A stretch of 64,000 nucleotides of DNA from an uncultured delta proteobacterium (GCA_963765675.1 CAVXXK010000004.1:1-64000); one strand, 5' to 3'; counted from the stretch's first letter, positions 246 to 22,667 are shown. Numbers and translations: made by a program. The notes: generated from the sequence alone by a model not told the origin.

Positions 246-285
246 AGCTCCCCGGCTTCGGTGTTTCCGCCGAAACCGGGGAGCT
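246..285 (-). terminator. GC-rich hairpin downstream of the G8 gene, possible terminator
   Basis: AGCTCCCCGG-C-TTCGGTG / CGCCGAA-A-CCGGGGAGCT inverted repeat about 60 bp past the stop at 349; no strong U-tract. Confidence 0.4.
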
Positions 286-348
286 GACATTTGCCTGGTT
301 CGTCGCAGGCAGAGAGAGCCGGCTCGCTAGCTGATTGGCCGTGCTCTA

Positions 349-4683: not shown

Positions 4684-4894
4684 TGCCGCCCCTCCTTACA
4701 TCGAGCGCGCTCATTTCAAGCAGAAAGTAATCGACGGCTCGAATAAATCCGAAACAACGACAACTTTCAAGTGAATCGGCAAGTTTTTAAACTAAATGTA
4801 TTTATTAAACGCATTTATCGTGATAGATGACTTCGCGACTACAGACGGCTATTTAACCTGCGAACTCTGGCAATAACAGATACTTGGGGGCGAG

Positions 4895-6895: not shown

Positions 6896-7003
6896 CGGTG
6901 GGCTGGACGCACGATCGGAATAGCTGACGCATCCATCGCACGAGATCTGCGATGCAGCGCCGGGAGCGCCAGGATTTCCTTGCGTTGAAAACGGTTTACC
7001 GCG

Positions 7004-7381
7004 ATGATCTTGCGATCTTGTGAGCTCCGGGGGATGCGCGTGCTGGAGTGCACTCCCGAGGGCGCGCGGCTGCGAACGGATCGCGATGCGGCGGACCTCG
7101 TCGGCGCCGCATTTGAGCATCACGTCGCCTTGATCGTGATTCGCGCCGAGAATCTTGACGCTGACTTCTTCCGGCTGAAGACCGGCGTCGCCGGTGCGAT
7201 CATTCAGAAGCTCGTTAATTGCCGGCTGCGTCTCGCGATCGTTGGTGATATTTCGCAATACCTGGCCGAAAGCTCCTCTTTGCAAGCCTTCGTCAATGAA
7301 TCAAACCGCGGCAACCAGGTCTGGTTTCTGGCGAGCCTCGAAGAACTGGATCAACGATTGGCGCGAGCGCATCCAGCGTAG
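7004..7381 (+). CDS. DUF4180 family protein
   Basis: Signature DFFRLKTGVAGAIIQKLVN..RLAIVGDIS...FVNESNRG. Confidence 0.8.
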   Translation: MILRSCELRGMRVLECTPEGARLRTDRDAADLVGAAFEHHVALIVIRAENLDADFFRLKTGVAGAIIQKLVNCRLRLAIVGDISQYLAESSSLQAFVNESNRGNQVWFLASLEELDQRLARAHPA

Positions 7382-7537
7382 GGACTGCGATCCGAGTTGC
7401 GCGTAGCTCCCCGCTCAATGGTACCGCTCCCAAGTTCAAACGATGGGCTTCGTCAGGTTTCAGCGCGAAATCGCACCCCTAGCGCAGGATTTCGACCTAC
7501 CGCACCAGCAAGTCCGGCCGGCCGCGCCGACGCGAGT

Positions 7538-8386
7538 TTATGACCAGCGCTCGAAACTTAGCAGGCCTACGATCTCGGTGACGGAATGCTTGCCGTGTTC
7601 GGCGAGGAGCGCGTCGAGCTCGCGATCGATTCGGCCGAGCGCGCCCGCTCCTTCCTTGATCAGCGCGGAGCCGACCTGCACCGCTTTGGCGCCCGCCAGA
7701 TGCGCGATATATGCGTCGCGGCCCGTGTTGATTCCGCCCACTGCGACAATGTCGAGCAGGCCCTCGCTTTCCCGATAGATCGAACGCGCATGGGAGAGCG
7801 CGCGTTCGGGTCCCTTGGCGATCCCGGTCGCGATATCGACTTCGAGGTCTTTTGGCAGATCGTTCTGGCATACGGCGATCGCCACACGCATCGCCTTCAG
7901 CAGGTCCGCGATCGCGCGCGCCGAAAATCCGGTCGCAGACGGCAGTTTGACCGCTAGCACGCATCCGACTTCGCCGCGCACTCGCCCGATCAGCGACTTG
8001 GCGCGCTCGAGAGATGCAAACGGCGCGAGCGCGCGCAGCACGTAGTCGTCGGCCAAGTTGAGCTCCAGGATCGCCACGCCCGCTCGATCGAGGCGCTTCG
8101 CGACCGCGATAAATTCCTCCTCGCTGGTGCCGACGATACTCGCGATGATCTTCTTGCCGCGCGGCGCGAGCTCACCTGCCAGCGCGGCAAAGTGCTCGAC
8201 ACCGGCGTTCTTCAGATTGTCCGGCGTCTCGAGTCCCGCAAGGTTGCACGACTTGAAAACGATCGCTCCGCGATGCACCGCCGCGAGCTCGTAGATCTCG
8301 CCGCGCTCGGCCGAGCGCGGCCCCGAAGCGTTCATGATCGAGCTCGAAAGCTCGAGCCCGCCGAGGCGTACGGAAGTGCGTTCCAT
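7538..8386 (-). CDS. Dihydroorotate dehydrogenase-like FMN-binding TIM-barrel protein (divergent active site)
   Basis: MNASG, KS, ELNL, VKLP, VGGINTG and QVGSA motifs of family 1 DHODH; ELNLADD replaces ELNLSCPN. Start taken at ATG 8386. Confidence 0.7.
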   Translation of the reverse strand: MERTSVRLGGLELSSSIMNASGPRSAERGEIYELAAVHRGAIVFKSCNLAGLETPDNLKNAGVEHFAALAGELAPRGKKIIASIVGTSEEEFIAVAKRLDRAGVAILELNLADDYVLRALAPFASLERAKSLIGRVRGEVGCVLAVKLPSATGFSARAIADLLKAMRVAIAVCQNDLPKDLEVDIATGIAKGPERALSHARSIYRESEGLLDIVAVGGINTGRDAYIAHLAGAKAVQVGSALIKEGAGALGRIDRELDALLAEHGKHSVTEIVGLLSFERWS

Positions 8387-8486
8387 GGCACGGTATGTAG
8401 CCGCATCAACGCGGGCTCGGCAAGCGCCGGAAAATTCGCGATCGCCCCGATTGTCTGGCGCGCTGGCGGATCGTAACTTCACCGCG

Positions 8487-9476
8487 ATGGCTGCACGGCG
8501 AATTCTTATTGCCGGTGCGGGCGCGATCGGCTCGGTAGTCGGCGCGCGGCTGCATCTGGCGGGGCATCGCGTCACGATGCTTGGTCGCCCCGCTCATTTG
8601 GATGCGATCGCGCGCGACGGATTGCACGTTACCGGACTGCTCGGCGAGTCGCGTGCGCGCGGCCTCGAGCTTGCCACCGATCCCGCGCAACTCGACGGCC
8701 GCTATGATCTGATCCTTTGCACCGTGAAGCCTTACGACACGGCGTCGATCGCCGACGCGATTTCGGATCGGCTTGCGGACGACGGATTCATCGTGTCGAT
8801 GCAAAATGGGCTCGGGAATATCGAGGCGCTCGCCGAACGCTTTTCGATTTCGCGAGTGCTCGGCGCGCGCGTGATTTTCGGCGCCGAAATTCCGCATCCG
8901 GGGGCCGCGCATGTGACGGTGTTCGCCGATCCGGTCGCGATCGGCCCCGACCCGCAGCAGCATCGCGAGGCCGCACCCGCGCTCGTAGCGCGCGCGACAG
9001 AGATCGCCGCGATGATCGATGCAGCAGGCGTGCCGGCGCTCGGATGCGCCGATATCATGCCGATCATCTGGACCAAGCTCGTATATAACGTAGCGCTCAA
9101 CCCGCTCGGCGCGTTGTTCGAGACGACTTATGGAGCGCTCGCGGCCGACGCCGACCTGCGCGCGATCATGGATGATCTTATCGAAGAGGCGTTCGCGGTC
9201 GCCGCGCGCGCTGGCGTGCGGATGCCGTTTGCCGGCGCCGCGGACTATCGCGCGGCATTTTACGAGCGCTTGATTCCCGCGACCGCCAGCCATCGTCCCA
9301 CAATGCTTTCGGATTTGAAGCGGCGCGGGCGCACCGATATCGATTCGCTGAGCGGCAAGATCGTCGAGCTTGCGGCGCGGCACGGAATCGGCGTCCCGAT
9401 GAACCTCGCGATGGTGCGGATGATTCATGGCGCTGAACGCCGGCGCGCGGCCCAATTGGCGACGGAGGAAAAATGA
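8487..9476 (+). CDS. panE: Ketopantoate reductase family (PanE/ApbA)
   Basis: GAGAIG Rossmann motif, VKPYD, MQNGLG, WTKLVYN..NPL, MLSD..GRTDID. Confidence 0.8.
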   Translation: MAARRILIAGAGAIGSVVGARLHLAGHRVTMLGRPAHLDAIARDGLHVTGLLGESRARGLELATDPAQLDGRYDLILCTVKPYDTASIADAISDRLADDGFIVSMQNGLGNIEALAERFSISRVLGARVIFGAEIPHPGAAHVTVFADPVAIGPDPQQHREAAPALVARATEIAAMIDAAGVPALGCADIMPIIWTKLVYNVALNPLGALFETTYGALAADADLRAIMDDLIEEAFAVAARAGVRMPFAGAADYRAAFYERLIPATASHRPTMLSDLKRRGRTDIDSLSGKIVELAARHGIGVPMNLAMVRMIHGAERRRAAQLATEEK

Positions 9477-9943
9477 AGCGGGCAACAATCACGCGCTCCT
9501 GTCTCGACGCGATCATCGCGCAGGGCGAGCGCGAGTTTCCATACGAATGCTGCGGCTTCATCATCGGAGGCACGGCGATTGAGGAGGTCCGTCCGATCAC
9601 CAATATCCAGAATCGAAAGCATGCCGAGGATCCGGAGACATTTGTGCGCGACGCGCGGACTGCATTTCTGATGGAGCCGAAGGAGCATCTGGCGGTGATG
9701 AACGAGGTCGATCGCCGAAAGCTCGCGCTCAAGATCGTGTATCATTCGCATCCCGATCACGACGCGTATTTCTCCCCGACCGATCGCGCGGCGGCGTGCT
9801 CGTTCGATCCGTCGGAGCCGGACTATCCCGACACGGCCTACGTAGTGATGTCGATCCGGTCAGGCAAGTTCGTGCGCGCGGCAGCCTTCGCATGGGACGA
9901 CGCGAAAAAGGAATTCGTCGAGACTGCGCTCGAAGTTGTGTAG
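9473..9943 (+). CDS. Mov34/MPN/JAB (M67) metallopeptidase, Mec-like
   Basis: PYECCG and JAMM motif YHSHPDHDAYFSPTD; ATGA overlap with panE. Confidence 0.85.
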   Translation: MKRATITRSCLDAIIAQGEREFPYECCGFIIGGTAIEEVRPITNIQNRKHAEDPETFVRDARTAFLMEPKEHLAVMNEVDRRKLALKIVYHSHPDHDAYFSPTDRAAACSFDPSEPDYPDTAYVVMSIRSGKFVRAAAFAWDDAKKEFVETALEVV

Positions 9944-9961
9944 GTCACGGCGATCGATCTC

Positions 9962-10171
9962 ATTGGTGGGCGGGCCGGCGGCCCGCCGTCGTCCACGGGC
10001 GAGACGCCCGCGCCACTATTTCAATGAGCATCTTCATTCGATCTGCATCGCCCCCATTGTCATTTCGAGCGCTGCGCGAGAAATCCCGAGGCGGCCACGC
10101 TTCAAGCCGACATCACGTGCAGCGGCCCTTCGATCGGGATTCCTCGCGCGGCAGCCACGCGCGGGAATGAC
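9962..10171. repeat. REP-like palindrome cluster
   Basis: GGTGGGCGGGCC..GGCCCGCC, GGGCGAGACGCCCGCGCCAC and GTCATTTCGAGCG...GGGAATGAC between convergent genes; related motifs at 14874 and 24919. Confidence 0.6.
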
Positions 10172-10222
10172 ATGAACAAAGCGCGGCGGGGACACGCGCG
10201 GTCTGCGGCGCATGCGCCCTGC

Positions 10223-11557
10223 TCATGCATTGGCGCGGAAGGCTTCTTCTTTCGCGGCGGCCTCCAGCGGCAGGCCGCGGGTCTCATCGATCAACAGGCC
10301 GATCGCGATCGCGGCGGGAATGCCGAGCAGGCTTAGCCATCCGGTGACGCCGGCGATTCCGCCGAAGCTCGGGGCGAGGACCGAGATCGTCGCCTCGGCC
10401 GCGAGCGCGCCGCCCGCGCTGACCAGCGCGAACCATCCGATTATCGTCGCGCGCAGCGCAGTCGGAAAGAGTTCCGTGAACGCGGCGTTCGACGCGACCA
10501 TCAATGCGTTCGCGCAGGTGTTGAGAATGAGGAACGCGAAGCCGAGCCATAGCGCGGGATGCGCGAAATGCAGCGGCGGCCCCCAGAAGTAGCCGAGTGC
10601 CAGAGTTGAAACCGCGAGGCCTGAGACCACTATCGTCGGCACGCGGCCGAAGCGCTCCGCGGCCCATGCGCCGATTGGAAACCCGAGCATCCCGAAGCCC
10701 CCGCTGATGATCGTGAGCGCGCTCGCGATCGTGGGTGACAGTCCGACCGTCGAGACCGCGTGGAAGTAGGCCCACGAGTTGACGCCCTCACTCGAGATCG
10801 CAGCCAGCAGAGTGCAGACGATCAGCGTGATCGAGCGCTTGCGATAGAGCGGGGTGAAGACGTCGTAGAAACGGCTGCGGTCGGCGGCGCCCTCGCTCGC
10901 GACGATCGCCCATCGCTCGCTCTCCTTGATTCGCGAGACCATCGGCGCAATCGCAAGACCCGCTCCCGCCAGCACCAGGAGCCATCGCCACGAGATTCCG
11001 GTCGAGGTGACGATCGGCATCAGGAAGACACAAAATCCGCTGCCGGCGGCGCCGGCGATTCCTGCCCAGCTCTGGCCGCTCGCGCGCCGAGCGATAGGCA
11101 GGACCTCGGCAAGGATCACGATCGCCGAGGCGGCGGCCGCACCCAGGAATGCGTTCATCACGATCGCGCAACTGACGAACATCACCAGACTGGTCGAGGC
11201 GGCCGCGCCTAATGCAGCAAGCGGAATTACGATTGACGACCAGATCAGAACGCGGCGGCGTCCGGTTCGATCCACCATCCGCGACAACACCATCGAGCCT
11301 AGAGCCGCCAGCGCCAGCCATGCGAAGACTCGCGCCAGTGCTGATTCACTGAGCGTGAAACTCTTCGCGATCCACGGCGATGCGATCGAGACGATCGCCG
11401 CGGTGTAGCCCTGATACGCAAGCATCGCGACCAGTATCCACACGGTGGCGCGCACGCGGTTCCGGTTCTCGGCGGTATCGTAGATTTCCGGAAGCGGGTC
11501 GGAAAGCGGTTCGGATGAAAGCGGCGGAGCGGCCTCGGTTGGAATACTCATCTGCAC
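10223..11557 (-). CDS. MFS transporter
   Basis: About 12 hydrophobic segments; motif A variants SRMVDRTGRRR and AERFGRV; ELFPTALRAT. Confidence 0.9.
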   Translation of the reverse strand: MQMSIPTEAAPPLSSEPLSDPLPEIYDTAENRNRVRATVWILVAMLAYQGYTAAIVSIASPWIAKSFTLSESALARVFAWLALAALGSMVLSRMVDRTGRRRVLIWSSIVIPLAALGAAASTSLVMFVSCAIVMNAFLGAAAASAIVILAEVLPIARRASGQSWAGIAGAAGSGFCVFLMPIVTSTGISWRWLLVLAGAGLAIAPMVSRIKESERWAIVASEGAADRSRFYDVFTPLYRKRSITLIVCTLLAAISSEGVNSWAYFHAVSTVGLSPTIASALTIISGGFGMLGFPIGAWAAERFGRVPTIVVSGLAVSTLALGYFWGPPLHFAHPALWLGFAFLILNTCANALMVASNAAFTELFPTALRATIIGWFALVSAGGALAAEATISVLAPSFGGIAGVTGWLSLLGIPAAIAIGLLIDETRGLPLEAAAKEEAFRANA

Positions 11558-11566
11558 GCGCGTGCT

Positions 11567-12013
11567 CTACGCGCTGAGCTCGAAGACCGGATTGCTGGCG
11601 GCGATGGCGAGGAAGTCCTCGACCGGAGCGCCGGCGCGAATCGTGTAGAAGCGCTGAACCGAGGAGGCGAATCGATCGAGGAACTCTTTGATGACCGGCG
11701 GCCGCTCGGCCTCCGGCAGCTCGCGCACTTTGCAGGTCCACTGCTTGGCGCCCTTTTTCAAAATCACCGAGCCTGCGGTGCGCGCGTTGCGGACCCATCC
11801 GGTTTCGCCGCGGCTCGCGACCAGGTAGCGACGCCCGTTCATCTCGAGGACGTTGACCGGCGTCGAATAATCGCGTCCGGTTTTGCGGCCTCTGGTGATG
11901 AGCAAATAGTTGTGCGCAAAGCCGATTCCGAGGCGGATCAAAAATCCAAAGCTTTGGTTGAAGAATCGGTCAATCGAGGTTTCCTTGATGAACTTGACCG
12001 GATTTTCAGGCAT
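11567..12013 (-). CDS. Nitroreductase family deazaflavin (F420)-dependent oxidoreductase, DDN-like
   Basis: LLITRGRKTGRDYSTPV, LVAS.G.TGWVRN, NPVFEL. Confidence 0.8.
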   Translation of the reverse strand: MPENPVKFIKETSIDRFFNQSFGFLIRLGIGFAHNYLLITRGRKTGRDYSTPVNVLEMNGRRYLVASRGETGWVRNARTAGSVILKKGAKQWTCKVRELPEAERPPVIKEFLDRFASSVQRFYTIRAGAPVEDFLAIAASNPVFELSA

Positions 12014-12073
12014 CAGAGGGAACCTCGAAGATTGAATCATAGCCGAGCCGCACAATCGACGATAACTTTCTCA

Positions 12074-12410
12074 TTGGGTTCGTTAATGTGGCATTTTCGC
12101 TATTTGCGAAACTGTCAAGATCTGCCAGTAAAACATTGGCTTTCCTATCGAATTCAATTGGGTTCGTTTGAGTAAATTTTGGCGAGTTTTCGTCGTTGCT
12201 TTGCCCTGCTCTCTGACCGATTATTCCTTCGCCAGGCGGCGCCGCGGCCGACACTCGAAAGTGCGTAATTCGACCGACCGCGGTTTGTCTGCGTAGCGCA
12301 TCGCGGGGACTATTTTCGCAGATTAAAGAATCAAGCATAAGGTTGAACTGTTCAGCCTTATAATTTTGTTCGAAATGTGGGATCACGGAGTCCCGATTAA
12401 TCGAGTCAAG
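12074..12410. other. AT-rich non-coding motif array, copy A (similar to 62063-62306)
   Basis: Ordered motifs GGGTTCGTT, TGGCATTTT, CCAGTAAAAC, GGCTTT, GGGTTCGTTT, TTTTCGTCG, hairpin TAAGGTTGAACTGTTCAGCCTTA, AATTTTGT and GTCAAG shared with the 62 kb region. Confidence 0.5.
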
Positions 12411-12438
12411 AGGGACCTTTATTGCTTAGGTGCTGAAT

Positions 12439-12472
12439 TCCCTCTCCCTAAAAACAGTGATTGGGAGAGGGA
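12439..12472. repeat. CCCTCTCCC...GGGAGAGGG palindromic repeat
   Basis: TCCCTCTCCC-N14-GGGAGAGGGA; same family as 21078 and 59152. Confidence 0.55.
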
Positions 12473-12665
12473 TAATCAAGAAGCGGGCGCAGCATAAGAG
12501 CTTGATACGTTCACGTCAGCTAGATCGCGGATTGGAGAGATTGCGAGCCATCCGGCGGCGACCAGGTTCGCGCTCGCGCCGATCGCGAGCGTCGCCCGCA
12601 GTCCGATGATCTCGGCGAGAATCCCGCTGGCGAGCGTGCCGGCAGATCGAAATGCTCTTGCTGAA

Positions 12666-12869
12666 TCAGAACGCCTTGGGAAGTCCTGCCTGTTTCAGCA
12701 CCGCATTAGCGGTATGACGGGACAGGATTTTATTGTCCACCGTGAATGTGCGATTGGAGATCGGGCTGTGCCAAATCTCGTGGTCACCCCGTCCCTGCCG
12801 AACAAAATAGCATTTGGGATCGGAGTTGGTCAGGATCCGTTTTAGTTCCGGCGTGAAGCTCTTTGACAT
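12666..12869 (-). CDS. hicA: HicA-family toxin
   Basis: 67 aa basic protein with RQGRGDHEIW and TANAVLKQAGL. Confidence 0.85.
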   Translation of the reverse strand: MSKSFTPELKRILTNSDPKCYFVRQGRGDHEIWHSPISNRTFTVDNKILSRHTANAVLKQAGLPKAF

Positions 12870-12951
12870 CCAGAGGATGCTCAGATGTTTTAACGGGACC
12901 CGCAGCTCGCTTTATTTGGAGGCGAATAAAGCTCTTAGATATCCGGACTGA

Positions 12952-14897: not shown

Positions 14898-15131
14898 ATG
14901 ACGCTTCGCGTCGGCCGACGAGCCGTCGGCCACCACTGGCAGCGAACAGAGGAGCAGGCAGGAAAGACGCTCGGCTCCAAATCCGGTGTTGCTCGCGCGC
15001 GGCAGCCAGCGCGCAATCCCTAATTCCAACGATACCTGGCGCGCTTCATGTCTATACTTGCCCTTCCCCAGGATTGGCTTTCCCTTCTGCCAGTGGTGGC
15101 CGACGGCTCGTCAGCCGACACGAAGCCTCAT
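14898..15131. repeat. Inverted pair of 45-bp REP-like units (REPIN-like)
   Basis: ATGACGCTTCGCGTCGGCCGACGAGCCGTCGGCCACCACTGGCAG at 14898-14942 (+), a 3-mismatch copy at 15087-15131 (-) and an identical copy at 25113-25157. Confidence 0.8.
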
Positions 15132-15227
15132 CTCGGGGTTCATCGCAAAGTTGACAAAGGTGGTAAGTATCCCATGACTGCAGAAACGACAGATGAACCT
15201 CGTTATAATGATGGTGTAGGATTTGGT

Positions 15228-16178
15228 TTGAGTCTCCTACTTGCGCAATTATACGAACTTGGGGGACAGTGCTTCGCCGTGAAACGCTATGATCCGCGTT
15301 TTTTGCTTCCTATCGGTATGACGCAAGCAATGCGCGAATTGCCAACCGACCAAACACCGGAAAAGTTTTTTGGAAATCTGGCAACACTCATTATCATAAT
15401 GAGGAATGCTGTCGAACAGGGTCGAAAAGAGGGTCTTAACAAAGCCGTCGAGGCCATGGAACGGATTGTTGATTTTGCCACGGTCGTCTCAGATCCCGAA
15501 AGCCAAGAACACTTCAAGAGGGATCGCTCAGCGTTTGAAGTCTGGAAAAAATTGTTCAAGCCTCTTTTGGAGCACTTCGACTCTGCGTTGTCGATCGATA
15601 TCGAGCAACTCTACATTTATGTACTGGAAAAGAAGCGCGGTTACGCGGCCGACGTGCTGCTTCAGCACATTGAGGAAGTTCTTCCGGAAGACGATCGCGA
15701 AGGTCTCTCCGAATTCGCGCGCGATAACATGCAGGAAGCAGGCGCATGCTTAGCATTTCATCGTTTTACGGCCAGTGGCTATCACATGGCGCGAGCCGTT
15801 GAAGATGTCGCGCGACGATACTACGAATTGGTAAAAGGTCAGTCGCAGAAGATTACCGCAAAAAACAATGAGACCCGCGATAGAACACTTGCACAGATCG
15901 CAGGCGAGTTTGAGGACATCCTAAGGAATTGGAACGGCAGAGATGATCCTGGTCTTTTAGGGTTGATCACTCCAACTTTACGGCAGTTTTGCCGGATCTA
16001 TCGCGACTCGCTCGCACATGCAGACTTAGAACTCAAGGAACTTTCTCCGAACGAAGCCGAAGTCGCTTTCGGTCACGCAGTTAGCGCGATCTCAACGATG
16101 CTGGAAGATGCACGCATGGGCGGACCGCATCTTGCGGGGGGATTAGATTGGACTGGGATGTTTGTTGATGGCACCTGA
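15228..16178 (+). CDS. IS passenger protein with a C-terminal HEPN/DUF4145-like domain
   Basis: Lower GC than the flanks; EAGACLAF...ASGYHMARAVE helix and RxxxxH (YRDSLAH). Start probably TTG 15228 (AGGA RBS at 15218, TATAAT at 15204); alternative ATG 15174. Confidence 0.65.
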   Translation: MSLLLAQLYELGGQCFAVKRYDPRFLLPIGMTQAMRELPTDQTPEKFFGNLATLIIIMRNAVEQGRKEGLNKAVEAMERIVDFATVVSDPESQEHFKRDRSAFEVWKKLFKPLLEHFDSALSIDIEQLYIYVLEKKRGYAADVLLQHIEEVLPEDDREGLSEFARDNMQEAGACLAFHRFTASGYHMARAVEDVARRYYELVKGQSQKITAKNNETRDRTLAQIAGEFEDILRNWNGRDDPGLLGLITPTLRQFCRIYRDSLAHADLELKELSPNEAEVAFGHAVSAISTMLEDARMGGPHLAGGLDWTGMFVDGT

Positions 16179-16374
16179 CGAGAAGCAATTGACGCAAAAC
16201 ACGCTCGCACCGAAACCTGCCGACCGAATTGATATTCCGATTCCGACGCGTGGCGATTTTTTCCGAACTCTACAGACACGCTACTGTCGCGCCGAATCGC
16301 GGAAGTCGGCGCGTGAAGCGACGCGGGAAAGCAAAGCCATGAAATGCCCGCGCGGATCGTCTTTGTGGTTGTAG
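16168..16374 (+). CDS. Small hypothetical protein inside the IS
   Basis: ATG overlaps the end of the HEPN gene; core TQNT..DIPIPTRGDFFRTL; its 3' part overlaps the transposase end on the opposite strand. Confidence 0.35.
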   Translation: MAPDEKQLTQNTLAPKPADRIDIPIPTRGDFFRTLQTRYCRAESRKSAREATRESKAMKCPRGSSLWL

Positions 16375-17259
16375 CGCCAAGCGTACTCGTTCAAGTCGTT
16401 CTGCAAAAACTTCGCAGAGAGATTGTGATAGACGCCTGAGATTCCGCGCTTCGCGAGCGACCAGAATCCTTCCAGCGTATTTACGTGCGCTGCCCCGCTC
16501 ACGTAAACCTTTTGTGTGTGATGCACGCGCCCATGTTCATATCCCATCGATCGCAATGAATCGTAAACCGGCGCTTCGTCCGTAAAGATCACAGTGGCGC
16601 GCATCACGTGCTCGCGAATCGGCGGCAGGATATAACCCTTCCATGGCAGCGGCAGAACCGACGCCACTACCTTGGCGTGTTTGTCGCCCGACTTGCGCTG
16701 AACCATGCCCATTACCGGAGTCTTTGACATATGCGGATGCTTCGAGCGCTTGTTCAGGTGCTTGTTAGCTTCTTTGCCGCCGACATACAATTTCGTCGAT
16801 TTCGACGAGCCCAGACATTGGTGATCCGTCATCGTCAAAGAGCGTGCGCAGGCGATTGAAGATGCGCCACGCGCATTTGTAGGTAACGCCAATCTCACGG
16901 CCTAGCTGTTTCGCGGAGATGCCGCATCGGGTGCTTGTCATCAAGTACATTCCGTAAAACCAGAGATGCAGCGAAGTGGCCGACTTGTGGAAGATCGTTC
17001 CCGCAGTCGGATGCAGGTGATAGCCGCACGCCTGACACGTCCACGATTGGCGTTGCTGTTTAGTCGCATAACGAGCGAACGCGCGAGTTGCCTTGCACTT
17101 TGGGCAATGCGCGTGCTCGCCGTCTGGCGACAAACGGTTTTTCCAAAGCCATTGCAGGCAGACTTCATCGTCGGGAAAGTCCGTCATGAACTCCATGAGA
17201 GAATAGGACGAATCCGACGACGGGCAACGCGTTGGACTCTTTCGATTTGTTCGCGACAT
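16281..17259 (-). pseudogene. IS1595-family DDE transposase with a +1 frameshift at ~16791
   Basis: Zn ribbon CPKC..CQACG, AGTIFHKS, GISAKQL, VEIDE/YVGG, FTDE, HVNTLEGFWS..KRGI.GVYH..NEYAWRYN. Confidence 0.9.
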
Positions 17260-17313: not shown

Positions 17314-17342
17314 TTGACAAATGAACGTTCATTCAATAGAGT
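17314..17342 (+). promoter_or_regulatory. Sigma70-type promoter with palindromic TetR-like operator
   Basis: TTGACA-17 bp-TAGAGT; the spacer contains the perfect palindrome AATGAACGTTCATT (17320-17333). Confidence 0.75.
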
Positions 17343-17391: not shown

Positions 17392-18081
17392 ATGACTCCG
17401 ATGGCTGAAGCTCTTCGATCTGTTCCCCACGATGACGCGCTGGTTAAACAGCGGCGGCGGCAGATTTTTTTGGCCGCTTGCCGGGTGCTGGAACGGAAAT
17501 CTTTTCACGAGGCCTCAGTTAAAGAGTTCGCCCTCGAGGCCGGGATCGCGGCGGGATCGATCTATGTCTATCTGCAGGGCAAGGACGAAATCCTGCTCCT
17601 GATCGGCGAGTCCATGGTCGCGGAGCTGATCGACGCGCTGCCGATAATTCGCGAGCGTGGCGGTGACGATCCGCGGCGCGAGCTGATCGCGATGATGCGC
17701 ACGATTCTCGACGTGATCGATCGCTATCGCGACGCGTTCAACGTGCTGCATCACGAGGGGCGCTACCTGGCGCGGCGGCCGCGCTACCGCCCCGCGATGA
17801 GCGCGGTGAGCGATCGCTATTTCAAGGCGGTTGGAGAAGTGCTCGAACGTGGACGCGCCGCCGGCGTGATCCACTTTGAGAACCTGAACAGCGCCGTGCA
17901 TATCATCCACATGCTGTGCGCCGGATGGGCGACCGGCGGAAAAGCGCTGGCGGGAATCGACAAGGAAACCTACTGGCGCGAGATCGCCGGGATAATCGAA
18001 GGCCGCTTTTTTGCGGCTTCAAGTCCGAAGCCGGCGGGACGGCATCACGCGCCCGAGCTTCGGCAACTCGAGGAGTCATAG
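17392..18081 (+). CDS. TetR/AcrR family transcriptional regulator
   Basis: RRRQIFLAA..LERKSFHEASVKEFALEAGIAAGSIYVYLQGKDEIL HTH; start 17392 or 17401. Confidence 0.92.
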   Translation: MTPMAEALRSVPHDDALVKQRRRQIFLAACRVLERKSFHEASVKEFALEAGIAAGSIYVYLQGKDEILLLIGESMVAELIDALPIIRERGGDDPRRELIAMMRTILDVIDRYRDAFNVLHHEGRYLARRPRYRPAMSAVSDRYFKAVGEVLERGRAAGVIHFENLNSAVHIIHMLCAGWATGGKALAGIDKETYWREIAGIIEGRFFAASSPKPAGRHHAPELRQLEES

Positions 18082-18084
18082 ACG

Positions 18085-18702
18085 ATGGCATTCTACGACC
18101 GGCGCACGCTCGACGGCGTTTACAGCGTCCGCGAAAGCGTCAACCAGATCATGAACTACCGCTACGCCGAAGAACGGATGATGCGGATGATGGCGGGATG
18201 GATCGCGATCACGCCGGAAGTTCCGGTGAAGCTCGAGATGGCGCGGCAGGTTTACGAAGACGCGCTCCATACCGACGCGCTCGGCAAACGGTTGCCGGAG
18301 CTGCGCGCGCAGGCACAGGTCTCGAAGCCGGCCAATGAAAACTTCGTCACCTTCATGCAGGAGATCGAAGACAAGGAACAGTGGGAAGAGACCATCGAGC
18401 GGCTGACCGGAATCTACCGCGTGCTGAAGCCGCATCTGATTTCGCATTACAGCGCGCTGATCAGCGCCGCGAACCCGGTTTATGAGCCGCCGACGATCCG
18501 GATCCTCGAGCGGATGCTCGAAGAAGAAAGCGCGCACGTCGAAAAGGGGCTCGTGCTGCTGCGCGATCTCCTCGATTCGCCGGAGAAGCATCGCCGCGCC
18601 GCGCAGTGGCAATCGCATCTGGAAGAACTGCTCGCGGCCTCGGGCGGAGTCACCGGCTTCGAGGCCGAGAAGGAGGCGCCGAGAAAGTTCGGCCGCAGTT
18701 AA
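18085..18702 (+). CDS. Ferritin-like four-helix-bundle protein with an incomplete diiron ligand set
   Basis: YAEE, EDALH and EESAH spaced as in ferritin-like folds; Lys (VLKPH) at the apparent third-ligand position. Confidence 0.7.
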   Translation: MAFYDRRTLDGVYSVRESVNQIMNYRYAEERMMRMMAGWIAITPEVPVKLEMARQVYEDALHTDALGKRLPELRAQAQVSKPANENFVTFMQEIEDKEQWEETIERLTGIYRVLKPHLISHYSALISAANPVYEPPTIRILERMLEEESAHVEKGLVLLRDLLDSPEKHRRAAQWQSHLEELLAASGGVTGFEAEKEAPRKFGRS

Positions 18703-18703
18703 G

Positions 18704-19073
18704 ATGAACGTCCCCGTACTCGACGATCGGATTATCGCGCACGGCAAGGCGCTGCTGGCCGGCATCGCCGAGGCTGATACCTATCTCGCCGACTCAGCAC
18801 GCGAGAGCTACCGCGAGGCGACTGCCACGATCGCGCCGATGCGCCCGTTCGATAATTTCGAGACGCTCGCGCTGGCGAAGATCGGCGGCCAGTTTATTTC
18901 GAAGCTGCAGGCTCACCGGACGCAAGGGAATCGCCAAGCTGCTGGTGCGATGGAAACAGACTGAAGACGAGACCTGGGTAATCGCAGGAGCCGAAGATAT
19001 CAGCACCAAGCCGTCGCCGTGGAGCGACATCCAGCATTATACGGTTGAACGCGAGGGCAACTCGAATGGCTGA
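18704..19073 (+). pseudogene. Small NTF2/SnoaL-like hypothetical protein with a +1 frameshift at ~18908; paralog of the next gene
   Basis: Removing one base gives ...ISKLRLTGRKGIAKLLVRWKQTEDETWVIAGAEDISTKPSPWSD..., which aligns with 19066-19452 and ends at TGA 19073 overlapping the next ATG. Confidence 0.65.
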
Positions 19074-19452
19074 TTTGGGAAATCGCGCGAACGTGATGGG
19101 CCCGCAGCCCATCGCGAAGATCGTCGAGCCACCGAAGTCGATGATCGCCGCCGCGGACGCGATTCTTAGCGCGCTCATCGCAGGGCGGCGCGACGAGATC
19201 GAAAAGGCGTCGGACGAGCAGGCGCGCGAAGCGATGCTCAAGATCGCGGACTCGGTCAAACCGGATACGTATGATAAAGTCACGATTATCGGACAGGCGA
19301 GGATCGCCAAGCATTGGTACACCAAGGCTCGCCTGACCGGCCGCGCCACGAAGCCTTTCACGCTTCAATTCCGGCTAGGCGAAGACCGCGGGCGTTGGAC
19401 GATTCGCGACGCAAACAACCTGACCGAAGTGCGGTCGGCATGGACCCGATAG
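19066..19452 (+). CDS. Small NTF2/SnoaL-like hypothetical protein
   Basis: Helix followed by beta-strand pattern, TKARLTGR...RWTIRDANNLT..SAWT; translationally coupled; fold is inferred. Confidence 0.7.
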   Translation: MADLGNRANVMGPQPIAKIVEPPKSMIAAADAILSALIAGRRDEIEKASDEQAREAMLKIADSVKPDTYDKVTIIGQARIAKHWYTKARLTGRATKPFTLQFRLGEDRGRWTIRDANNLTEVRSAWTR

Positions 19453-19478
19453 AATAGAGAAGAGCCGGGAGAACGATC

Positions 19479-20279
19479 ATGGAACGAATGATAGCGGTCG
19501 ATAAGCTCGCGCGTCCCGAAGATCACATTCTGGTTCCAGCCGAGCGCTCGCGGCGTGCCCGCACCGAACAGGGGCTGACGCCCAACGGCGCGATGCCGTA
19601 TGAAGATGATTTCCTCAAGGCTCGTCTGCACGGAATCTGCGCTGGAGAGTTCCAGGCGATGGAGGCCGCGGGCCGCACGCTGTTCGACTTTCCCGACTCG
19701 CCATGGGAGTTTCAGCTCGACATGGCGCGCCAGGTGTGGGACGAATCTCGCCACGCCGAGATCTACATGAAGCTGCTGGACTACGCGGGCTCGTTCTACG
19801 GCGAATTTCCGGAGAGCGAAGTGCTGTGGTCATGCACGCAGGCCGAGGATCCCGCTGCGCGCGTCGCGGGAATCAATCGCGGACTCGAGGGACTCGCCTG
19901 CGACGTGTTCGAGCAGCTTATCCGCCTGGCGCAGAAGATGGGTGACGAGGTGATCGAGCGCTCGGTCGATTATGTGCTGGCCGACGAGATCACCCACGTG
20001 CGGATGGGCTCGCGCTGGATGCGCAAGCTGACCGAGGGCGACCCCGAGCGCTACAAGAAGGCGCAGGACTTCCAGAACAGTATCGACGACTTGTTCAACT
20101 TCGCCGGCACGCGCACCACCGTGGACAAGGCCAGCAAGATCATGCAGCACGTCAACGGCAAAGATATAGAGATCGACCAGGGCATCATAATTGCGCGCGA
20201 AGCGCGGCTGCTGGCCGGTTTTACCGAAGAAGAACTCGAACGGCTGGTCAAAGGCTTCGGCAAGAGCTCGGCCTACTAG
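19479..20279 (+). CDS. DUF455-family ferritin-like diiron protein (paralog 1)
   Basis: Full ligand pattern AGE..DESRH..GLEG..DEITH; C-terminal EARLLAGF.EEEL. Confidence 0.85.
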   Translation: MERMIAVDKLARPEDHILVPAERSRRARTEQGLTPNGAMPYEDDFLKARLHGICAGEFQAMEAAGRTLFDFPDSPWEFQLDMARQVWDESRHAEIYMKLLDYAGSFYGEFPESEVLWSCTQAEDPAARVAGINRGLEGLACDVFEQLIRLAQKMGDEVIERSVDYVLADEITHVRMGSRWMRKLTEGDPERYKKAQDFQNSIDDLFNFAGTRTTVDKASKIMQHVNGKDIEIDQGIIIAREARLLAGFTEEELERLVKGFGKSSAY

Positions 20280-20301
20280 AATCTGGAAGAGGATTTACGC
20301 C

Positions 20302-21069
20302 ATGGAAAGATGCATCCCGGTTGATCGCCTTGCACGGCCGGACCATATCGTCCTGATGCGCGGAAAGCAGGTGCGGGAGATCCAGGAAGAGCAGGGACTC
20401 GACAGCCGTCCGCTGCCCTTCGACGAGGAAGCGCTGCGCTCGCGAATGCATGGAATCATGACCGGCGAGTTCCAGGCGATGGAGGCGGCGGGACGCACCC
20501 TGTTCGATTTTCCCGATGCGCCGTGGGAATTTCAGCTCGACATGGCGCGTCAGGTTTGGGACGAATCGCGTCACGCGGAAATTTTCGAACGCCTGCTCAA
20601 CTACATGGGCGGCAAGATGGGCGACTACGTCGAGACCGAGATCCTGTGGCGATGCACGCAGGCGGAGGACCCGGCGGCGCGCGTGGCGGGAATTAATCGC
20701 GGCCTCGAGGGGCTTGCCTGCGACGTGTTCGATCAACTGATCCGAATCGCGCAGCGCAACGGCGACGAGGTGATCGAGCGCGCGATCGACTACGTGCTGG
20801 CCGACGAGATCACTCACGTCCGGATGGGCTCGAAGTGGATGCGCAAGCTGACCGAGGGCGACCCCGAGCGGCTCGCTCGCGCGCAGGCCTTCCAGGAGAC
20901 CGTCGATGAAGTTTTCAACTTCCGCGGCGGACGCCGCGCAGCCGAGGATCTGAAGATCGACGACGGCATGATGCTGACGATTGCGCGCGAAGCGCGGCTG
21001 CTGGCTGGATTCACCGAAGCGGAAATCCAGCGGCTGGTCGAATCGACCCGCAAGAGCGCCGCATACTGA
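20302..21069 (+). CDS. DUF455-family ferritin-like diiron protein (paralog 2)
   Basis: TGE..DESRH..GLEG..DEITH; long segments identical to paralog 1; AGAGGA RBS. Confidence 0.85.
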   Translation: MERCIPVDRLARPDHIVLMRGKQVREIQEEQGLDSRPLPFDEEALRSRMHGIMTGEFQAMEAAGRTLFDFPDAPWEFQLDMARQVWDESRHAEIFERLLNYMGGKMGDYVETEILWRCTQAEDPAARVAGINRGLEGLACDVFDQLIRIAQRNGDEVIERAIDYVLADEITHVRMGSKWMRKLTEGDPERLARAQAFQETVDEVFNFRGGRRAAEDLKIDDGMMLTIAREARLLAGFTEAEIQRLVESTRKSAAY

Positions 21070-21120: not shown

Positions 21121-21365
21121 GCCTGCCGCACCGCCGCCCGCTGCGATCCACAAAATTCTGAACCGCCGTAGCCAATCTAGTCAGACGCTCTGGATCAATT
21201 GATCTAGAGCGTTTGTTTTTTGCGTGGCGCCAGATTATCTTGCCGACTCAGGCTACATAAGATAGGCCGCCGCGCGGCATTAGTTGGGGTTGCCGTACGC
21301 CGGCCGATATAGACCGGTCTCCCGCAGTTCTTCTGATGACCGGGAACTCGTACGTGGAGGTCCTT

Positions 21366-22667
21366 ATGGATTGGCGGGTTCTCAAATGTCCAGCGGTGAT
21401 TGTGGGGATGATCATCGCGGTCGCCTTCTCGGCCCCTGCACACGCACAGGTTAAGCCGGGGGATTTTATCACTTACAACAACGCGTCCAGGGTCAATGGA
21501 CTCTTGTCGCTCGGCGCCTACGACGCCGTGCTGCACGGGATGACGATGAAGATCATTCCCGCCGAGCGGATCGACTGGCCGCCGCCGTACAAAGATGCGA
21601 CCGAGAAGTACTCGGCACAGGTGCGCTTGTCGAGCGACCATAAGTCGATGGTCGGCTACGTCGCGGGCCAGCCGTTTCCTCTGATTGATCCGAACGATCC
21701 CGAAGTGGCGACCAAGATCATCTGGAACGAGCAGTTCCGCCCGATCAGCAGCGATGACTACGACCTGCGGTTCTTCGACTGCGAAGACGTGTACGTCGGC
21801 CGCAACAAGCCAGTCTTTCTCTTGAACGATACCCAGGTCGGCCACTATGCGGGCTATGACGAGATTGGCCGGACCGAGGTTGATCCGCTGCCGACCGATC
21901 CGGATTTCAAGAAGACCAACCGGATGTGGTTGTTCGCGCTATATCCGGTGCTGGCGCCCGCCACCGATCGCGGCGTGGGAATTATCCGTTACCGCTTCGA
22001 GGATCCGAGGCGTGGCGACGACGAATGGACCTGGACGCCCGGTGCGCGCAGGCTGCGCCGCCTGAACGAGGCGATCCTGAGCAATCCCAGTGGACTCGGC
22101 GCATGGAATCCTGACCACTATGGCGGTTTCAATCCCAAGGTCGAATGGTTCCAGTATAAATTCCTGGGCGAGAAGTCGATGCTGGCGACCGCGCATGCCG
22201 AGCACTCTCCGGAAGAACGCTGCACCACTGACGGCGGCGGCTCCGCGTGTCCGGAAGCATGGGAGATGCGCCACGTGTATGTCGTCGAAGCGACTCCCGA
22301 CCGCAGCAAACTGCAGGGCTATCTTGGATCCAAAGACGTGGTGTTCATGGACTCCGAGATGTGGTTCGCGCCATATATCGACGTGTACGATCGTAGCGGC
22401 CGGCTGTTCCAGGGCTTCATCTACTGGCTGGCCTACCGCGATCGGCCGGTCCCCGACGCGCGCGTTGCGATCTATCCATTCAAGCGCTCGTTCGTCGTGG
22501 GCGCGCTCGCGATGGATATCCAGGCAGGCGAGCATACGATGTGCTATCTGCCGGGCCGCGACACGCCAGAGCGGGAATGCTGGTATATCAACATGGGCGC
22601 GGTGGATCGGAGCTTCTTCGATCCGGACGCGATGGCTAAAGCGGGGACCAGCGGCAACACGATGTAA
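21366..22667 (+). CDS. DUF1329 domain exported protein
   Basis: Signal peptide, VKPGDFIT..N, YVAGQPFP.IDPNDP..A.KIIWN, D.W.W.P..RRLRR; GGAGG RBS. Confidence 0.8.
   Translation: MDWRVLKCPAVIVGMIIAVAFSAPAHAQVKPGDFITYNNASRVNGLLSLGAYDAVLHGMTMKIIPAERIDWPPPYKDATEKYSAQVRLSSDHKSMVGYVAGQPFPLIDPNDPEVATKIIWNEQFRPISSDDYDLRFFDCEDVYVGRNKPVFLLNDTQVGHYAGYDEIGRTEVDPLPTDPDFKKTNRMWLFALYPVLAPATDRGVGIIRYRFEDPRRGDDEWTWTPGARRLRRLNEAILSNPSGLGAWNPDHYGGFNPKVEWFQYKFLGEKSMLATAHAEHSPEERCTTDGGGSACPEAWEMRHVYVVEATPDRSKLQGYLGSKDVVFMDSEMWFAPYIDVYDRSGRLFQGFIYWLAYRDRPVPDARVAIYPFKRSFVVGALAMDIQAGEHTMCYLPGRDTPERECWYINMGAVDRSFFDPDAMAKAGTSGNTM

Follow-up and report, generated by a model that had tools for sequence, protein, structure and literature searches.

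DUF455 proteins in a candidate operon for a heteromeric diiron oxidase of the ferritin fold under TetR repression

Here we describe a six-gene operon from an uncultured delta proteobacterium whose products, with DUF455 proteins at their centre, may assemble into a soluble diiron oxidase of several different ferritin-fold and accessory subunits, repressed by a TetR-family regulator. We advance this reading tentatively, at somewhat under an even chance. DUF455 is a widespread ferritin-fold family, and a conserved partner set is now defined for one large branch of it, hosted by Binatota and Rokubacteria/Methylomirabilota, two soil phyla that are abundant but uncultured. New for DUF455 are a degenerate homolog, a family of NTF2-fold subunits, a fusion that links two of the parts and a regulator with a precise operator. 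What was an anonymous DUF can in this way be tested as a multi-subunit enzyme, for which the candidate substrates are few.

The operon lies in the window, by which we mean the whole 64,000-nucleotide stretch of DNA that was analysed. ORF calls and translations give six close-packed plus-strand genes at 17392-21069, in the order TetR, FerL, Sm1, Sm2, D455A and D455B, and reproduce exactly the intergenic distances of 3, 1, -8, 26 and 22 nt given by an earlier sequence-only reading. The -8 nt junction, between Sm1 and Sm2, is a ATGGCTGA start/stop overlap. That reading also placed the genes between a promoter/operator and a terminal hairpin; both were located, the hairpin falling beyond position 21069, where it had ended the unit. 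The features are as follows.

17314..17342, plus strand: sigma-70-like promoter, TTGACA-17 nt-TAGAGT, 10/12 matches
17320..17335, plus strand: putative TetR operator AATGAACGTTCATTCA, containing the 14-bp palindrome AATGAACGTTCATT, between the -35 and -10 hexamers
17392..18081, plus strand: TetR-family regulator, 229 aa, from a TetR_N match
18085..18702, plus strand: FerL, degenerate DUF455-like ferritin-fold subunit, 205 aa, from hhalign against D455
18704..19073, plus strand: Sm1, NTF2-like small subunit, frameshifted copy, from comparison with intact 122-aa orthologs
19066..19452, plus strand: Sm2, NTF2-like small subunit, 128 aa, from alignment, AF2 model and fold matches
19479..20279, plus strand: D455A, DUF455 protein, 266 aa, from Pfam and the complete E/ExxH/E/ExxH set
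20302..21069, plus strand: D455B, DUF455 paralog, 255 aa, from Pfam and 68% identity to D455A
21182..21215, plus strand: hairpin resembling an intrinsic terminator, stem of 15 bp with a T run after it, 3' of the last gene

The exact operator 16-mer recurs 5' of the TetR gene in 14/17 Binataceae loci, with near variants at L061 and L064 and with the region upstream of TetR truncated by the contig end at L058. The search for sigma-70-like promoters found 2 sites against 1.0 +/- 1.0 in shuffles. With 4 terminator-like sites in the region and 3.5 +/- 1.9 in shuffles, the terminator pattern is weak taken alone; its placement after the last gene fits. The regulator belongs to the TetR family by its TetR_N domain (32.1 bits, Pfam cutoff 24). 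Its best NCBIfam matches are FadR, BetI, FasR and FabR, all far under their cutoffs, and assignment as a FadR, FasR or FabR equivalog was rejected (49.7 bits against 200 for FadR, the others lower). As the sequence-only reading had noted, neither a reductase nor a ferredoxin is encoded in the operon; the lack of a linked reductase counts against an oxidase.

D455A and D455B both belong to DUF455 (PF04305), scoring 105 and 98.8 bits against a cutoff of 34.3. They are 68% identical, share the three long identical cores first noticed in the sequence, and form sister clades in the tree (support 0.98). The ligand residues E57/E62, E89xxH92, E137 and E170xxH173 are invariant in 64/64 aligned sequences, and both proteins fit the ferritin-like diiron-carboxylate pattern, E/ExxH/E/ExxH on four core helices, the helical core being an AF2 prediction. 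We infer iron binding from these motifs, because the searched literature describes no characterised DUF455 protein and assigns the family no function. The best AF2 model of D455A has a pLDDT of 81, the remaining four of five models lying at 62-66.

Profile alignment identifies FerL as a true relative of DUF455, in line with the earlier suggestion of a third, ligand-substituted member (hhalign against D455: probability 94.5%, E 7.4e-8). Pfam does not place it in the family, FerL scoring 17.3 bits against the 34.3-bit DUF455 cutoff and 20.9 bits with DUF892, again under the cutoff; 11/17 FerL orthologs match DUF455 weakly, the best at E 0.0031. The six-ligand diiron-carboxylate set is incomplete: D455 E89 in helix 2 becomes D/C59 and E137 in helix 3 becomes an invariant K115, and H62 and E148xxH151 are retained. 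Residues E29, E30, D/C59, H62, E105, K115, H117, E134, E148 and H151 are common to both phyla, and since they are conserved in both, the Lys and Asp/Cys substitutions are not random decay. FerL has 1367 homologs and no Pfam family of its own.

The two small proteins are paralogs, as first proposed (31% identity across 96 residues, E 1e-7, using the intact L068 copy of Sm1), and match no Pfam family. Sm2 has a conserved N-terminal tail, MxDLGxRxNVMGPQPI, and its AF2 model (pLDDT 84.7) contains three helices and four long strands. At E <= 1e-3 Foldseek gave 24 matches in the PDB, of which every one listed is NTF2-like (3fka at E 3.5e-5), and the VIA fold comparison gave 3blz_A at Z 10.9 and 3fka_A at Z 10.5. 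On this evidence Sm1 and Sm2 are members of the NTF2-like superfamily, whose fold is a cone in which three helices pack against a curved, antiparallel sheet. The earlier comparison with the small accessory proteins of Paa and diiron monooxygenases is corrected to this extent, the fold being neither PaaB- nor MmoB-like. The NTF2-fold subunit family to which they belong is rare, with only 117 representatives in 1.84 billion clustered proteins.

Sm1 in the window carries one additional base near 18907-18909, which is absent from five same-genus loci; a 261-nt metagenome contig from run X4 (3 mismatches to the window) likewise has one base fewer at 18909. The suspected frameshift at 18908 is thereby borne out against both. 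Intact 122-aa orthologs are found at L049:9745-10113 and L068:10076-10444. The frameshift of Sm1 in this genome counts against the oxidase reading.

The genes co-occur elsewhere, across genera and phyla, as the sequence-only reading required. The full six-gene set is present in 17/18 main Binataceae loci, and 29 additional short Binataceae loci, five of whose genomes duplicate genomes of the main set, contain FerL in 29, Sm2 in 29, Sm1 in 27 and D455B in 26. A sample of 151 genomes from the order contains 99 with D455 and 93 with FerL; by comparison of these two separate tables, 92 have both, 7 have D455 alone, 1 has FerL alone and 51 have neither. Loci from Rokubacteria/Methylomirabilota have as their core just one DUF455 gene, directly 5' of FerL (76/77 loci; the 77th, L094, starts at FerL), with FerL often fused to an NTF2 domain. 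Such fusions in Rokubacteria-type loci (P0177, P0203, P0231 and P0210) are 303-325 aa long, and 28/39 FerL ORFs called in these loci have 294-387 aa. A search for fusions of the degenerate domain had been suggested with DUF455 as partner; a fusion does exist in another phylum, but to the NTF2 small-protein domain. The ancestral core consists of FerL, a single DUF455 gene and a single NTF2 domain, often fused to FerL, and the Binataceae lineage duplicated both its DUF455 gene and its NTF2 gene.

Reduced Binataceae operons are complementary. Three genomes (L032, L043, L063) retain FerL, Sm2 and D455A only, and one (G215) retains TetR, FerL, Sm1 and D455B only. This suggests two catalytic/NTF2 pairs sharing FerL, lends support to the earlier idea of two alternative catalytic subunits, and predicts how the subunits pair. 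It also bears on the view that the genes are mere neighbours whose products form no complex, the DUF455 enzymes acting independently and the small proteins being unrelated to them, all co-located by duplication history and shared regulation. Solitary extra D455A copies at L054 and L065, which adjoin neither FerL nor Sm genes, speak for that view, as does the resemblance of most 'longer' DUF455 proteins to read-through artefacts. We consider it quite improbable in the face of the FerL-NTF2 fusions, the near-constant adjacency of D455 and FerL, the joint loss of Sm1 with D455B and of Sm2 with D455A, the -8 and +1 nt junctions that suggest translational coupling, and a mean column identity of 82% in the FerL alignment.

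The C-terminal residue of D455 is Tyr in 59/59 Binataceae and Rokubacteria-type sequences (...SAAY in Binataceae, ...S(P/Q)VY in Rokubacteria) and in 76/83 ORFs taken from fusion-query loci; it is absent from 5 distant proteobacterial sequences. Cys141, four residues past ligand E137, has the same distribution. These residues would fit a protein or peptide substrate, whether the invariant Tyr is oxidised or serves a radical relay, as in an R2-like or self-processing protein, or a ribosomal peptide is what the enzyme modifies. The latter draws on distant loci with FerL-like and multiple DUF455 genes (L146, L148), which also contain HprK-like, ATP-grasp and NTP_transf_5 genes, and on ABC exporter genes 3' of the module in L135 and L138. 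This RiPP-like context is, however, confined to homologs that are 30-37% identical and lack the C-terminal Tyr; Binataceae and Rokubacteria operons show no precursor-peptide gene, protease or leader-binding protein, and a conserved end residue may be a simple interface contact. We judge a protein or peptide substrate to be unlikely. One particular form of it, which we think very unlikely, makes D455 an R2-like or self-processing enzyme rather than a conventional substrate oxygenase: its free C-terminal Tyr would be delivered, within a FerL-NTF2 complex, to the diiron site flanked by Cys141, and be oxidised to a radical driving partner chemistry or converted to a protein-derived cofactor or small molecule. 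CADD, which converts its own tyrosine, offers a parallel.

For the preferred oxidase reading, three weak clues suggest that the substrate is an acyl-thioester or lipid: the lipid-type TetR, its nearest relatives being the regulators of lipid genes FadR, FasR and FabR; the fold neighbours; and the placement in Rokubacteria, with an acyl-CoA ligase on one side and an acyl-CoA carboxylase on the other. Fold comparison of the D455A model puts aldehyde-deformylating proteins on top (5ux2_B at Z 15.2, 6d9f_A at Z 14.3), followed by sMMO 1fyz_A (13.8), R2lox 4hr0_A (13.7), 1t0q_B (13.6) and PaaAC 3pvr_B (12.4), bearing in mind that helical bundles typically reach Z ~14 by arrangement alone. The top Foldseek match is ADO with bound palmitate (E 4.7e-3). 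Sequence searches of the PDB found no solved relative. In Rokubacteria the module stands 5' of biotin carboxylase (44/77 loci), BCCP (47/77), a DinB-family gene (35/77) and a PccB/MmdA-type carboxyltransferase (25/77), the gaps ranging from roughly -8 to +4 nt. On its 5' side, 15-19 Rokubacteria loci have a Liv-type ABC transporter together with an acyl-CoA ligase resembling FadD11. Only one phylum shows the carboxylase neighbourhood, which may be the housekeeping acetyl-CoA carboxylase retained by synteny. The Binataceae neighbours (PEPCK, PanE-like, JAB and dcw genes) are uninformative on the substrate.

The same data can be read as handling of iron or peroxide in place of an organic substrate, in which a ferritin-, rubrerythrin- or Dps-like ferroxidase/peroxidase assembly protects against oxidative damage and FerL and the NTF2 proteins are structural. 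Bacterioferritin and Dps are close behind among the D455A fold matches at Z 13-14, with Dps-like and mini-bacterioferritin chains (8w1d_A, Z 14.2; 9qq4_A, Z 14.0) aligning almost like oxygenases, and FerL has weak matches to models of the DUF892/YciE type and of Ferritin. Pol IV, a DinB-family protein, CinA and an HscA-Fdx-IscS-like block are among the neighbours in Rokubacteria, but such DNA-damage-type neighbours are not conserved in Binataceae. D455 proteins are also larger than a four-helix ferritin core, with 250-266 aa and, in the AF2 model, additional helices and a beta hairpin outside it; the operon is under a ligand-type TetR with a conserved operator; and ferritins have neither NTF2-fold partners nor a duplication into two catalytic/NTF2 pairs. 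On balance this role appears improbable.

In the oxidase that we favour, FerL, without catalytic activity or with one metal only, would be the scaffold on which the catalytic subunit sits, much as PaaC serves PaaA, and D455A with Sm2 and D455B with Sm1 would pair on this shared FerL. A hydrophobic substrate may be held or gated in the NTF2 cone and undergo O2-dependent desaturation, hydroxylation or epoxidation, the substrate being an acyl-CoA, an acyl-ACP or another lipid-like compound. This compound, or a product of it, would free TetR from the palindromic operator, and a ferredoxin or reductase with its gene elsewhere would supply the electrons. If the acyl-CoA link is true, O2-dependent oxidases of acyl-thioesters would gain a new architecture.

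A close parallel in layout is PaaABC(D)E, with catalytic PaaA, homologous non-catalytic PaaC and a small bridging protein set against D455, FerL and the small proteins here. Its substrate is a CoA thioester, and PaaAC is the fold neighbour noted above. Unlike Paa, the small subunits here have the NTF2 fold rather than that of PaaB, and there are two catalytic paralogs. Many FerL homologs have been auto-named '1,2-phenylacetyl-CoA epoxidase catalytic subunit' by JGI, and this name, the weak PaaA_PaaC matches and the fold neighbour could point to a diverged copy of a characterised system (PaaABCDE, BoxAB, MiaE or a soluble diiron monooxygenase). We give this next to no credence. Membership of PaaABCDE was rejected, the PaaA_PaaC scores being 16 (D455A) and 15.5 (D455B) bits against a cutoff of 28.5, and in Pfam and NCBIfam PaaB, PaaD and PaaE have no match among the six operon genes, and MiaE and BoxB are unlisted at E <= 1 for all seven query sequences. 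The same two libraries list no Phenol_Hydrox (E <= 1), MmoB/DmpM effector or reductase match, and sequence and profile searches of the PDB found none of these systems. None of these characterised families reaches its cutoff, in agreement with the sequence-only reading.

sMMO, ToMO and phenol hydroxylase likewise combine catalytic and homologous non-catalytic ferritin-fold subunits with small accessory proteins, a likeness at fold level only (1fyz_A, 1t0q_B). Their subunits of 320-510 aa, own Pfam family, MmoB-type effector and encoded reductase are all absent here. The ADO-type proteins (PDB 4kvq, 5ux2, 6d9f, 8fhc; Z 15.2-14.2) are soluble diiron enzymes that have a pocket for a fatty-acyl chain. 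In structure they match the D455A model best, at a sequence identity of only 13-18% (13% at the Z 15.2 match). ADO is a single subunit with no need for FerL- or NTF2-type partners, and membership of D455 in that family was rejected, with no ADO model listed at E <= 1 and no PDB sequence match. Acyl-ACP desaturase (PF03405) was likewise set aside at 12.6 and 12.5 bits against a cutoff of 22.7; a profile search matched acyl-ACP 6-desaturase 7pp7 at E 0.1.

R2lox and the R2 protein of class I ribonucleotide reductase share the ferritin-fold dimetal site with D455, and R2lox binds a fatty acid; the sequence matches are weak (E 0.009-0.018) and the R1 partner is absent. R2 reaches its partner through a C-terminal tail containing a tyrosine, and the invariant Tyr at the C-terminus of D455 is reminiscent of this. 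For the small subunits, Rieske dioxygenase beta subunits are absent among the listed fold matches. In Rieske ring-hydroxylating dioxygenases the beta subunit has the NTF2 fold and supports the catalytic subunit of the oxygenase structurally; that catalytic subunit is of the Rieske/mononuclear-iron kind, whereas here it would be a ferritin-fold protein of the diiron type.

Open reading frames, translations and family scores confirm as a whole what the sequence-only reading had described: a packed operon with paralogs and a degenerate subunit, whose six co-oriented genes have gaps of 3, 1, -8, 26 and 22 nt. Its features are as follows, the genes being placed by ORF listing and translation.

17314-17342: promoter, TTGACA-17-TAGAGT
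17392-18081, + strand: TetR, 229 aa
18085-18702, + strand: FerL, degenerate DUF455-like ferritin-fold protein, 205 aa
18704-19073, + strand: Sm1, small NTF2-fold protein, 122 aa in relatives
19066-19452, + strand: Sm2, paralog of Sm1, 128 aa
19479-20279, + strand: D455A, DUF455 protein, 266 aa
20302-21069, + strand: D455B, paralog of D455A, 255 aa
21182-21215: hairpin, 15-bp stem and T run

At the -8 gap the Sm2 start overlaps the Sm1 stop as ATGGCTGA. Between the promoter hexamers sits AATGAACGTTCATTCA, holding a perfect 14-bp palindrome, AATGAACGTTCATT, which is taken as the TetR target. This putative operator of 16 nt is exact in 14 of 17 Binataceae loci and has near variants in L061 and L064, the upstream region of L058 being truncated in this comparison. 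Downstream in the window lie a DUF1329 gene, GTP-PEPCK and a dcw/FtsZ cluster, and GTP-PEPCK is co-oriented 3′ of the operon in most genera at a distance of 112-470 nt. The DUF1329/LolA-like gene (21336-22667, +), between D455B and PEPCK, occurs among 20 long loci only in the same-genus L049 and L068; in the other genera PEPCK comes immediately after the operon. Directly upstream of the promoter is an IS1595/ISXO2-type transposase (16281-17259, -) broken into two ORFs that overlap, one for the Zn ribbon (16765-17259) and one for the DDE part (16281-16898); on the same side of the operon, L052 carries a transposase fragment of 71% identity. For a 376-aa ORF at 15048-16178 (+), Pfam gives nothing at E <= 0.001.

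The module is widespread in the lineage, its homologs carrying the source name Candidatus Binataceae. We surveyed 151 genomes of the order, the window's genome included; 96 of them are high-quality, and 29 genera are represented. D455A-like genes (E <= 1e-20), nearly always an adjacent A+B pair, are present in 99/151 genomes, 63/96 high-quality genomes and 18/29 genera, and FerL in 93/151, 59/96 and 17/29, respectively. Comparing the two tables by hand, we find both genes in 92 of the 151 genomes, D455 alone in 7, FerL alone in 1 and neither in 51; these are counts without a statistic, and related genomes are not independent. Several D455-only genomes have their match at a contig start (for example G242, G288 and G302). 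Among the tallied genomes, five (G227, G265, G279, G301 and G312) carry an unpublished flag, and no claim rests solely on these.

Gene order is equally well kept. Twenty longer loci come from 18 genomes; with the second loci L054 and L065 set aside, 17 of the 18 main loci have the complete set of six in one constant order, and the remaining one, L063, has FerL-Sm2-D455A only. A further 29 loci are shorter; five belong to genomes that the longer loci already cover, and one (L021) is cut by a contig end. FerL and Sm2 are found in all 29, Sm1 in 27 and D455B in 26. Loci L032 and L043 have neither Sm1 nor D455B, and genome G215 has the complementary reduction, TetR-FerL-Sm1-D455B, without Sm2 or D455A. 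These complementary reduced operons argue that D455A would work with Sm2 and D455B with Sm1, on a FerL common to both. Solitary extra D455A-type copies, 78-80% identical and adjoined by no FerL or Sm genes, occur in L054 (genome G217, 8094-8891) and L065 (genome G276, 7979-8776); both genomes also have the full operon.

D455A and D455B are 68% identical and score 105 and 98.8 bits against DUF455 (Pfam cutoff 34.3). FerL reaches the cutoff of no Pfam or NCBIfam model. In a profile-profile alignment with D455 (probability 94.5%, E 7.4e-8), D/C59 and H62 of FerL align with E89 and H92, the invariant K115 with E137, and E148xxH151 with E170xxH173; this alignment makes FerL a derivative of DUF455, altered at two of the six ligand positions. 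Both substitutions are fixed in the two phyla covered, and FerL is the most conserved of the set (mean column identity 82%, against 74% for D455 and 42% for Sm); a decaying gene does not show this pattern. Its C-terminal motif GGVTGF...GRS is invariant.

The small paralogs share 31% identity (E 1e-7) and belong to no family in Pfam or NCBIfam. The AF2 model of Sm2 is an NTF2-like cone (pLDDT 84.7), for which Foldseek returns 24 PDB matches at E <= 1e-3, the best being 3fka (E 3.5e-5), and the VIA-align scores are Z 10.9 for 3blz_A and Z 10.5 for 3fka_A. The Sm2 N-terminal tail MxDLGxRxNVMGPQPI is invariant. Compared with five same-genus loci (L068, L025, L020, L024 and L021), Sm1 in the window has a single additional base near 18907-18909, and L049 and L068 contain intact orthologs of 122 aa. 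A Logan contig of sequencing run X4 (261 nt, 3 mismatches, depth ~3) also has one base fewer at 18909. The best DNA match among sequencing runs covers 0.27 of sampled words, and no RNA run is listed. Both an assembly error and a strain-specific pseudogene are possible.

The six ligand columns of D455 are invariant in 64/64 aligned sequences. Cys141, four residues past E137, and a C-terminal Tyr (D455A residue 266, window 20274-20276; D455B residue 255, window 21064-21066) occur in 59/59 Binataceae and Rokubacteria-type proteins and 0/5 distant ones, and are specific to the FerL-linked DUF455 branch; 76 of 83 extracted ORFs end in Y. The conserved termini (this Tyr, the FerL C-terminal motif and the Sm2 N-terminal tail) may be subunit contacts.

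The D455A model, with pLDDT 81 in the best of five models only, shows a ferritin core to which further helices and a beta hairpin are added. In Foldseek no PDB match for it reaches E <= 1e-3, the best being an aldehyde-deformylating oxygenase with palmitate (E 4.7e-3). With VIA-align, in which helical bundles easily give Z ~14, the top three are 'ADO-activity' proteins (Z 15.2, 14.3 and 14.2), followed by Dps (14.2), mini-bacterioferritin (14.0), sMMO alpha (13.8) and R2lox (13.7), with PaaAC at 12.4. These model-based matches support the fold, not the function. PDB sequence searches with D455A, FerL, Sm2 and a D455 profile returned no solved relative; the match 'Crov588', reported to be a leucine-rich-repeat protein, was rejected. 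In the ESM Atlas nothing appears beyond DUF455 or 'hypothetical protein' clusters. Membership in PaaA_PaaC, MiaE, BoxB, Phenol_Hydrox, ADO and acyl-ACP desaturase fails throughout, in keeping with the sequence-only reading of a candidate novel diiron enzyme.

Beyond Binataceae, a combined Sm1+Sm2 profile set against 1.84 billion clustered proteins matches no more than 117 representatives at E <= 1e-3. Several of these are 300-325 aa long, with FerL, recognised by GWIALTPE, YRVLKPHL and NPVYEPPTRRIL, as the N-terminal two thirds and an NTF2 domain as the C-terminal third. A genome scan with one such fusion (P0203) yields 80 loci, mostly Rokubacteria/Methylomirabilota MAGs. Three of the others are distant proteobacterial loci, and the labels Tectomicrobia, Myxococcales, Gammaproteobacteria and Acidoferrum occur once each. 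Leaving the distant ones aside, FerL is immediately preceded in 76 of 77 loci by one DUF455 gene, with 54-62% identity to the paralogs in the window; the remaining locus, L094, starts at FerL. With ORF calling in Rokubacteria loci filtered by GC3-GC2, FerL is fused in 28 of 39 ORFs (294-387 aa) and unfused in 11 (195-231 aa). A FastTree of D455 (18 A, 13 B, 5 distant as root, and 28 Rokubacteria-type, of which 25 were drawn at random and the others are named outliers) places A and B as sister clades (support 0.98) and 27/28 Rokubacteria-type proteins in a separate clade. In our reading of these sequences, the ancestral module would be D455, FerL and one NTF2 domain, and both the D455 and the NTF2 gene would have been duplicated in Binataceae.

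Other apparent fusions were set aside. There are thirteen 'longer' DUF455 proteins, most of them singletons whose D455 part stops 40-50 residues short before FerL begins, which makes frameshift read-through the probable origin. P0238 joins A and B by read-through, P0009 (387 aa) is a partial-A+B read-through, and P0246 (FerL-D455, 487 aa) is a singleton; none of these is counted as a fusion.

Some loci have other surroundings. L146 (Stellaceae MAG, 5900-12900), L147 and L148 (Betaproteobacteria MAG, 280-6500) have a FerL-like gene together with several DUF455 genes, from two to four, whose identity to those in the window is 30-37%. Also encoded there are an HPr-kinase-like protein, an ATP-grasp of the sugar-transfer type and an NTP_transf_5 nucleotidyltransferase, a context that resembles peptide-tailoring clusters. 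In L135 (Tectomicrobia MAG, 8906-12530) and L138 (Gammaproteobacteria MAG, 9763-11586), ABC_membrane and ABC_tran exporter genes replace the carboxylase genes downstream of D455-FerL.

Clues to the substrate are indirect. TetR scores above the TetR_N cutoff, and its nearest NCBIfam models (Bacillus-type FadR, BetI, FasR and FabR), all far under cutoff (FadR 49.7 bits, cutoff 200), are lipid/acyl-CoA regulators, which may hint at the substrate; the best fold neighbours of the D455A model, whose ligands are fatty acyl chains or CoA thioesters, may do likewise. The genes that flank the operon in Binataceae (F420H2-quinone-reductase-like, JAB, PanE-like, DHO_dh-like, MFS) offer no clue to function. 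In Rokubacteria the order is D455, FerL(-NTF2), biotin carboxylase (44/77), BCCP (47/77), DinB-family (35/77) and PccB/MmdA-type carboxyltransferase (25/77), mostly at distances of -8 to +4 nt. A Liv-type ABC transporter including a FadD11-like acyl-CoA ligase is directly upstream in 15-19 of 77 loci, and in others the module follows Pol IV and an HscA-Fdx-IscS-like block. The DinB-family (PF05163) gene lies between BCCP and carboxyltransferase of the acyl-CoA carboxylase cluster (e.g. L072:10528-11040). This order fits a D455 enzyme that would oxidise acyl-CoA between activation and carboxylation; the linkage is confined to a single phylum and might just as well reflect synteny with a carboxylase of housekeeping function. 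As previously noted for this operon, no reductase or ferredoxin is encoded in the Binataceae operon, and the Fer2 gene of some Rokubacteria loci is part of the isc-like block, several genes upstream.

The multicomponent diiron enzyme first proposed is supported in part: comparative genomics gives good support to a conserved DUF455 system of several components. We consider it quite probable that D455, FerL and the NTF2 proteins form one physical system; that it uses O2 to oxidise an acyl-thioester or lipid-like substrate is a tentative proposal, with chances a little short of even. A large DUF now has a defined set of partners and can be approached by concrete experiments. The literature searched, with subscription journals outside its coverage, contained no functional study of DUF455 (PF04305/COG2833/IPR007402) and no description of an NTF2-fold partner of a ferritin-fold enzyme; the excerpts of PMC9988556 and PMC4520260 give no function for DUF455, and searching for aldehyde deformylation with Kitasatospora setae found nothing.

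The DUF455 system would belong among the multi-subunit ferritin-fold diiron enzymes. Its putative catalytic subunit, degenerate homolog and small protein parallel the PaaA/PaaC/PaaB layout and likewise the alpha/beta/gamma hydroxylases of soluble diiron monooxygenases. For an NTF2 partner of an oxygenase, the nearest known analogy is found in the Rieske dioxygenases, whose beta subunit has the NTF2 fold.
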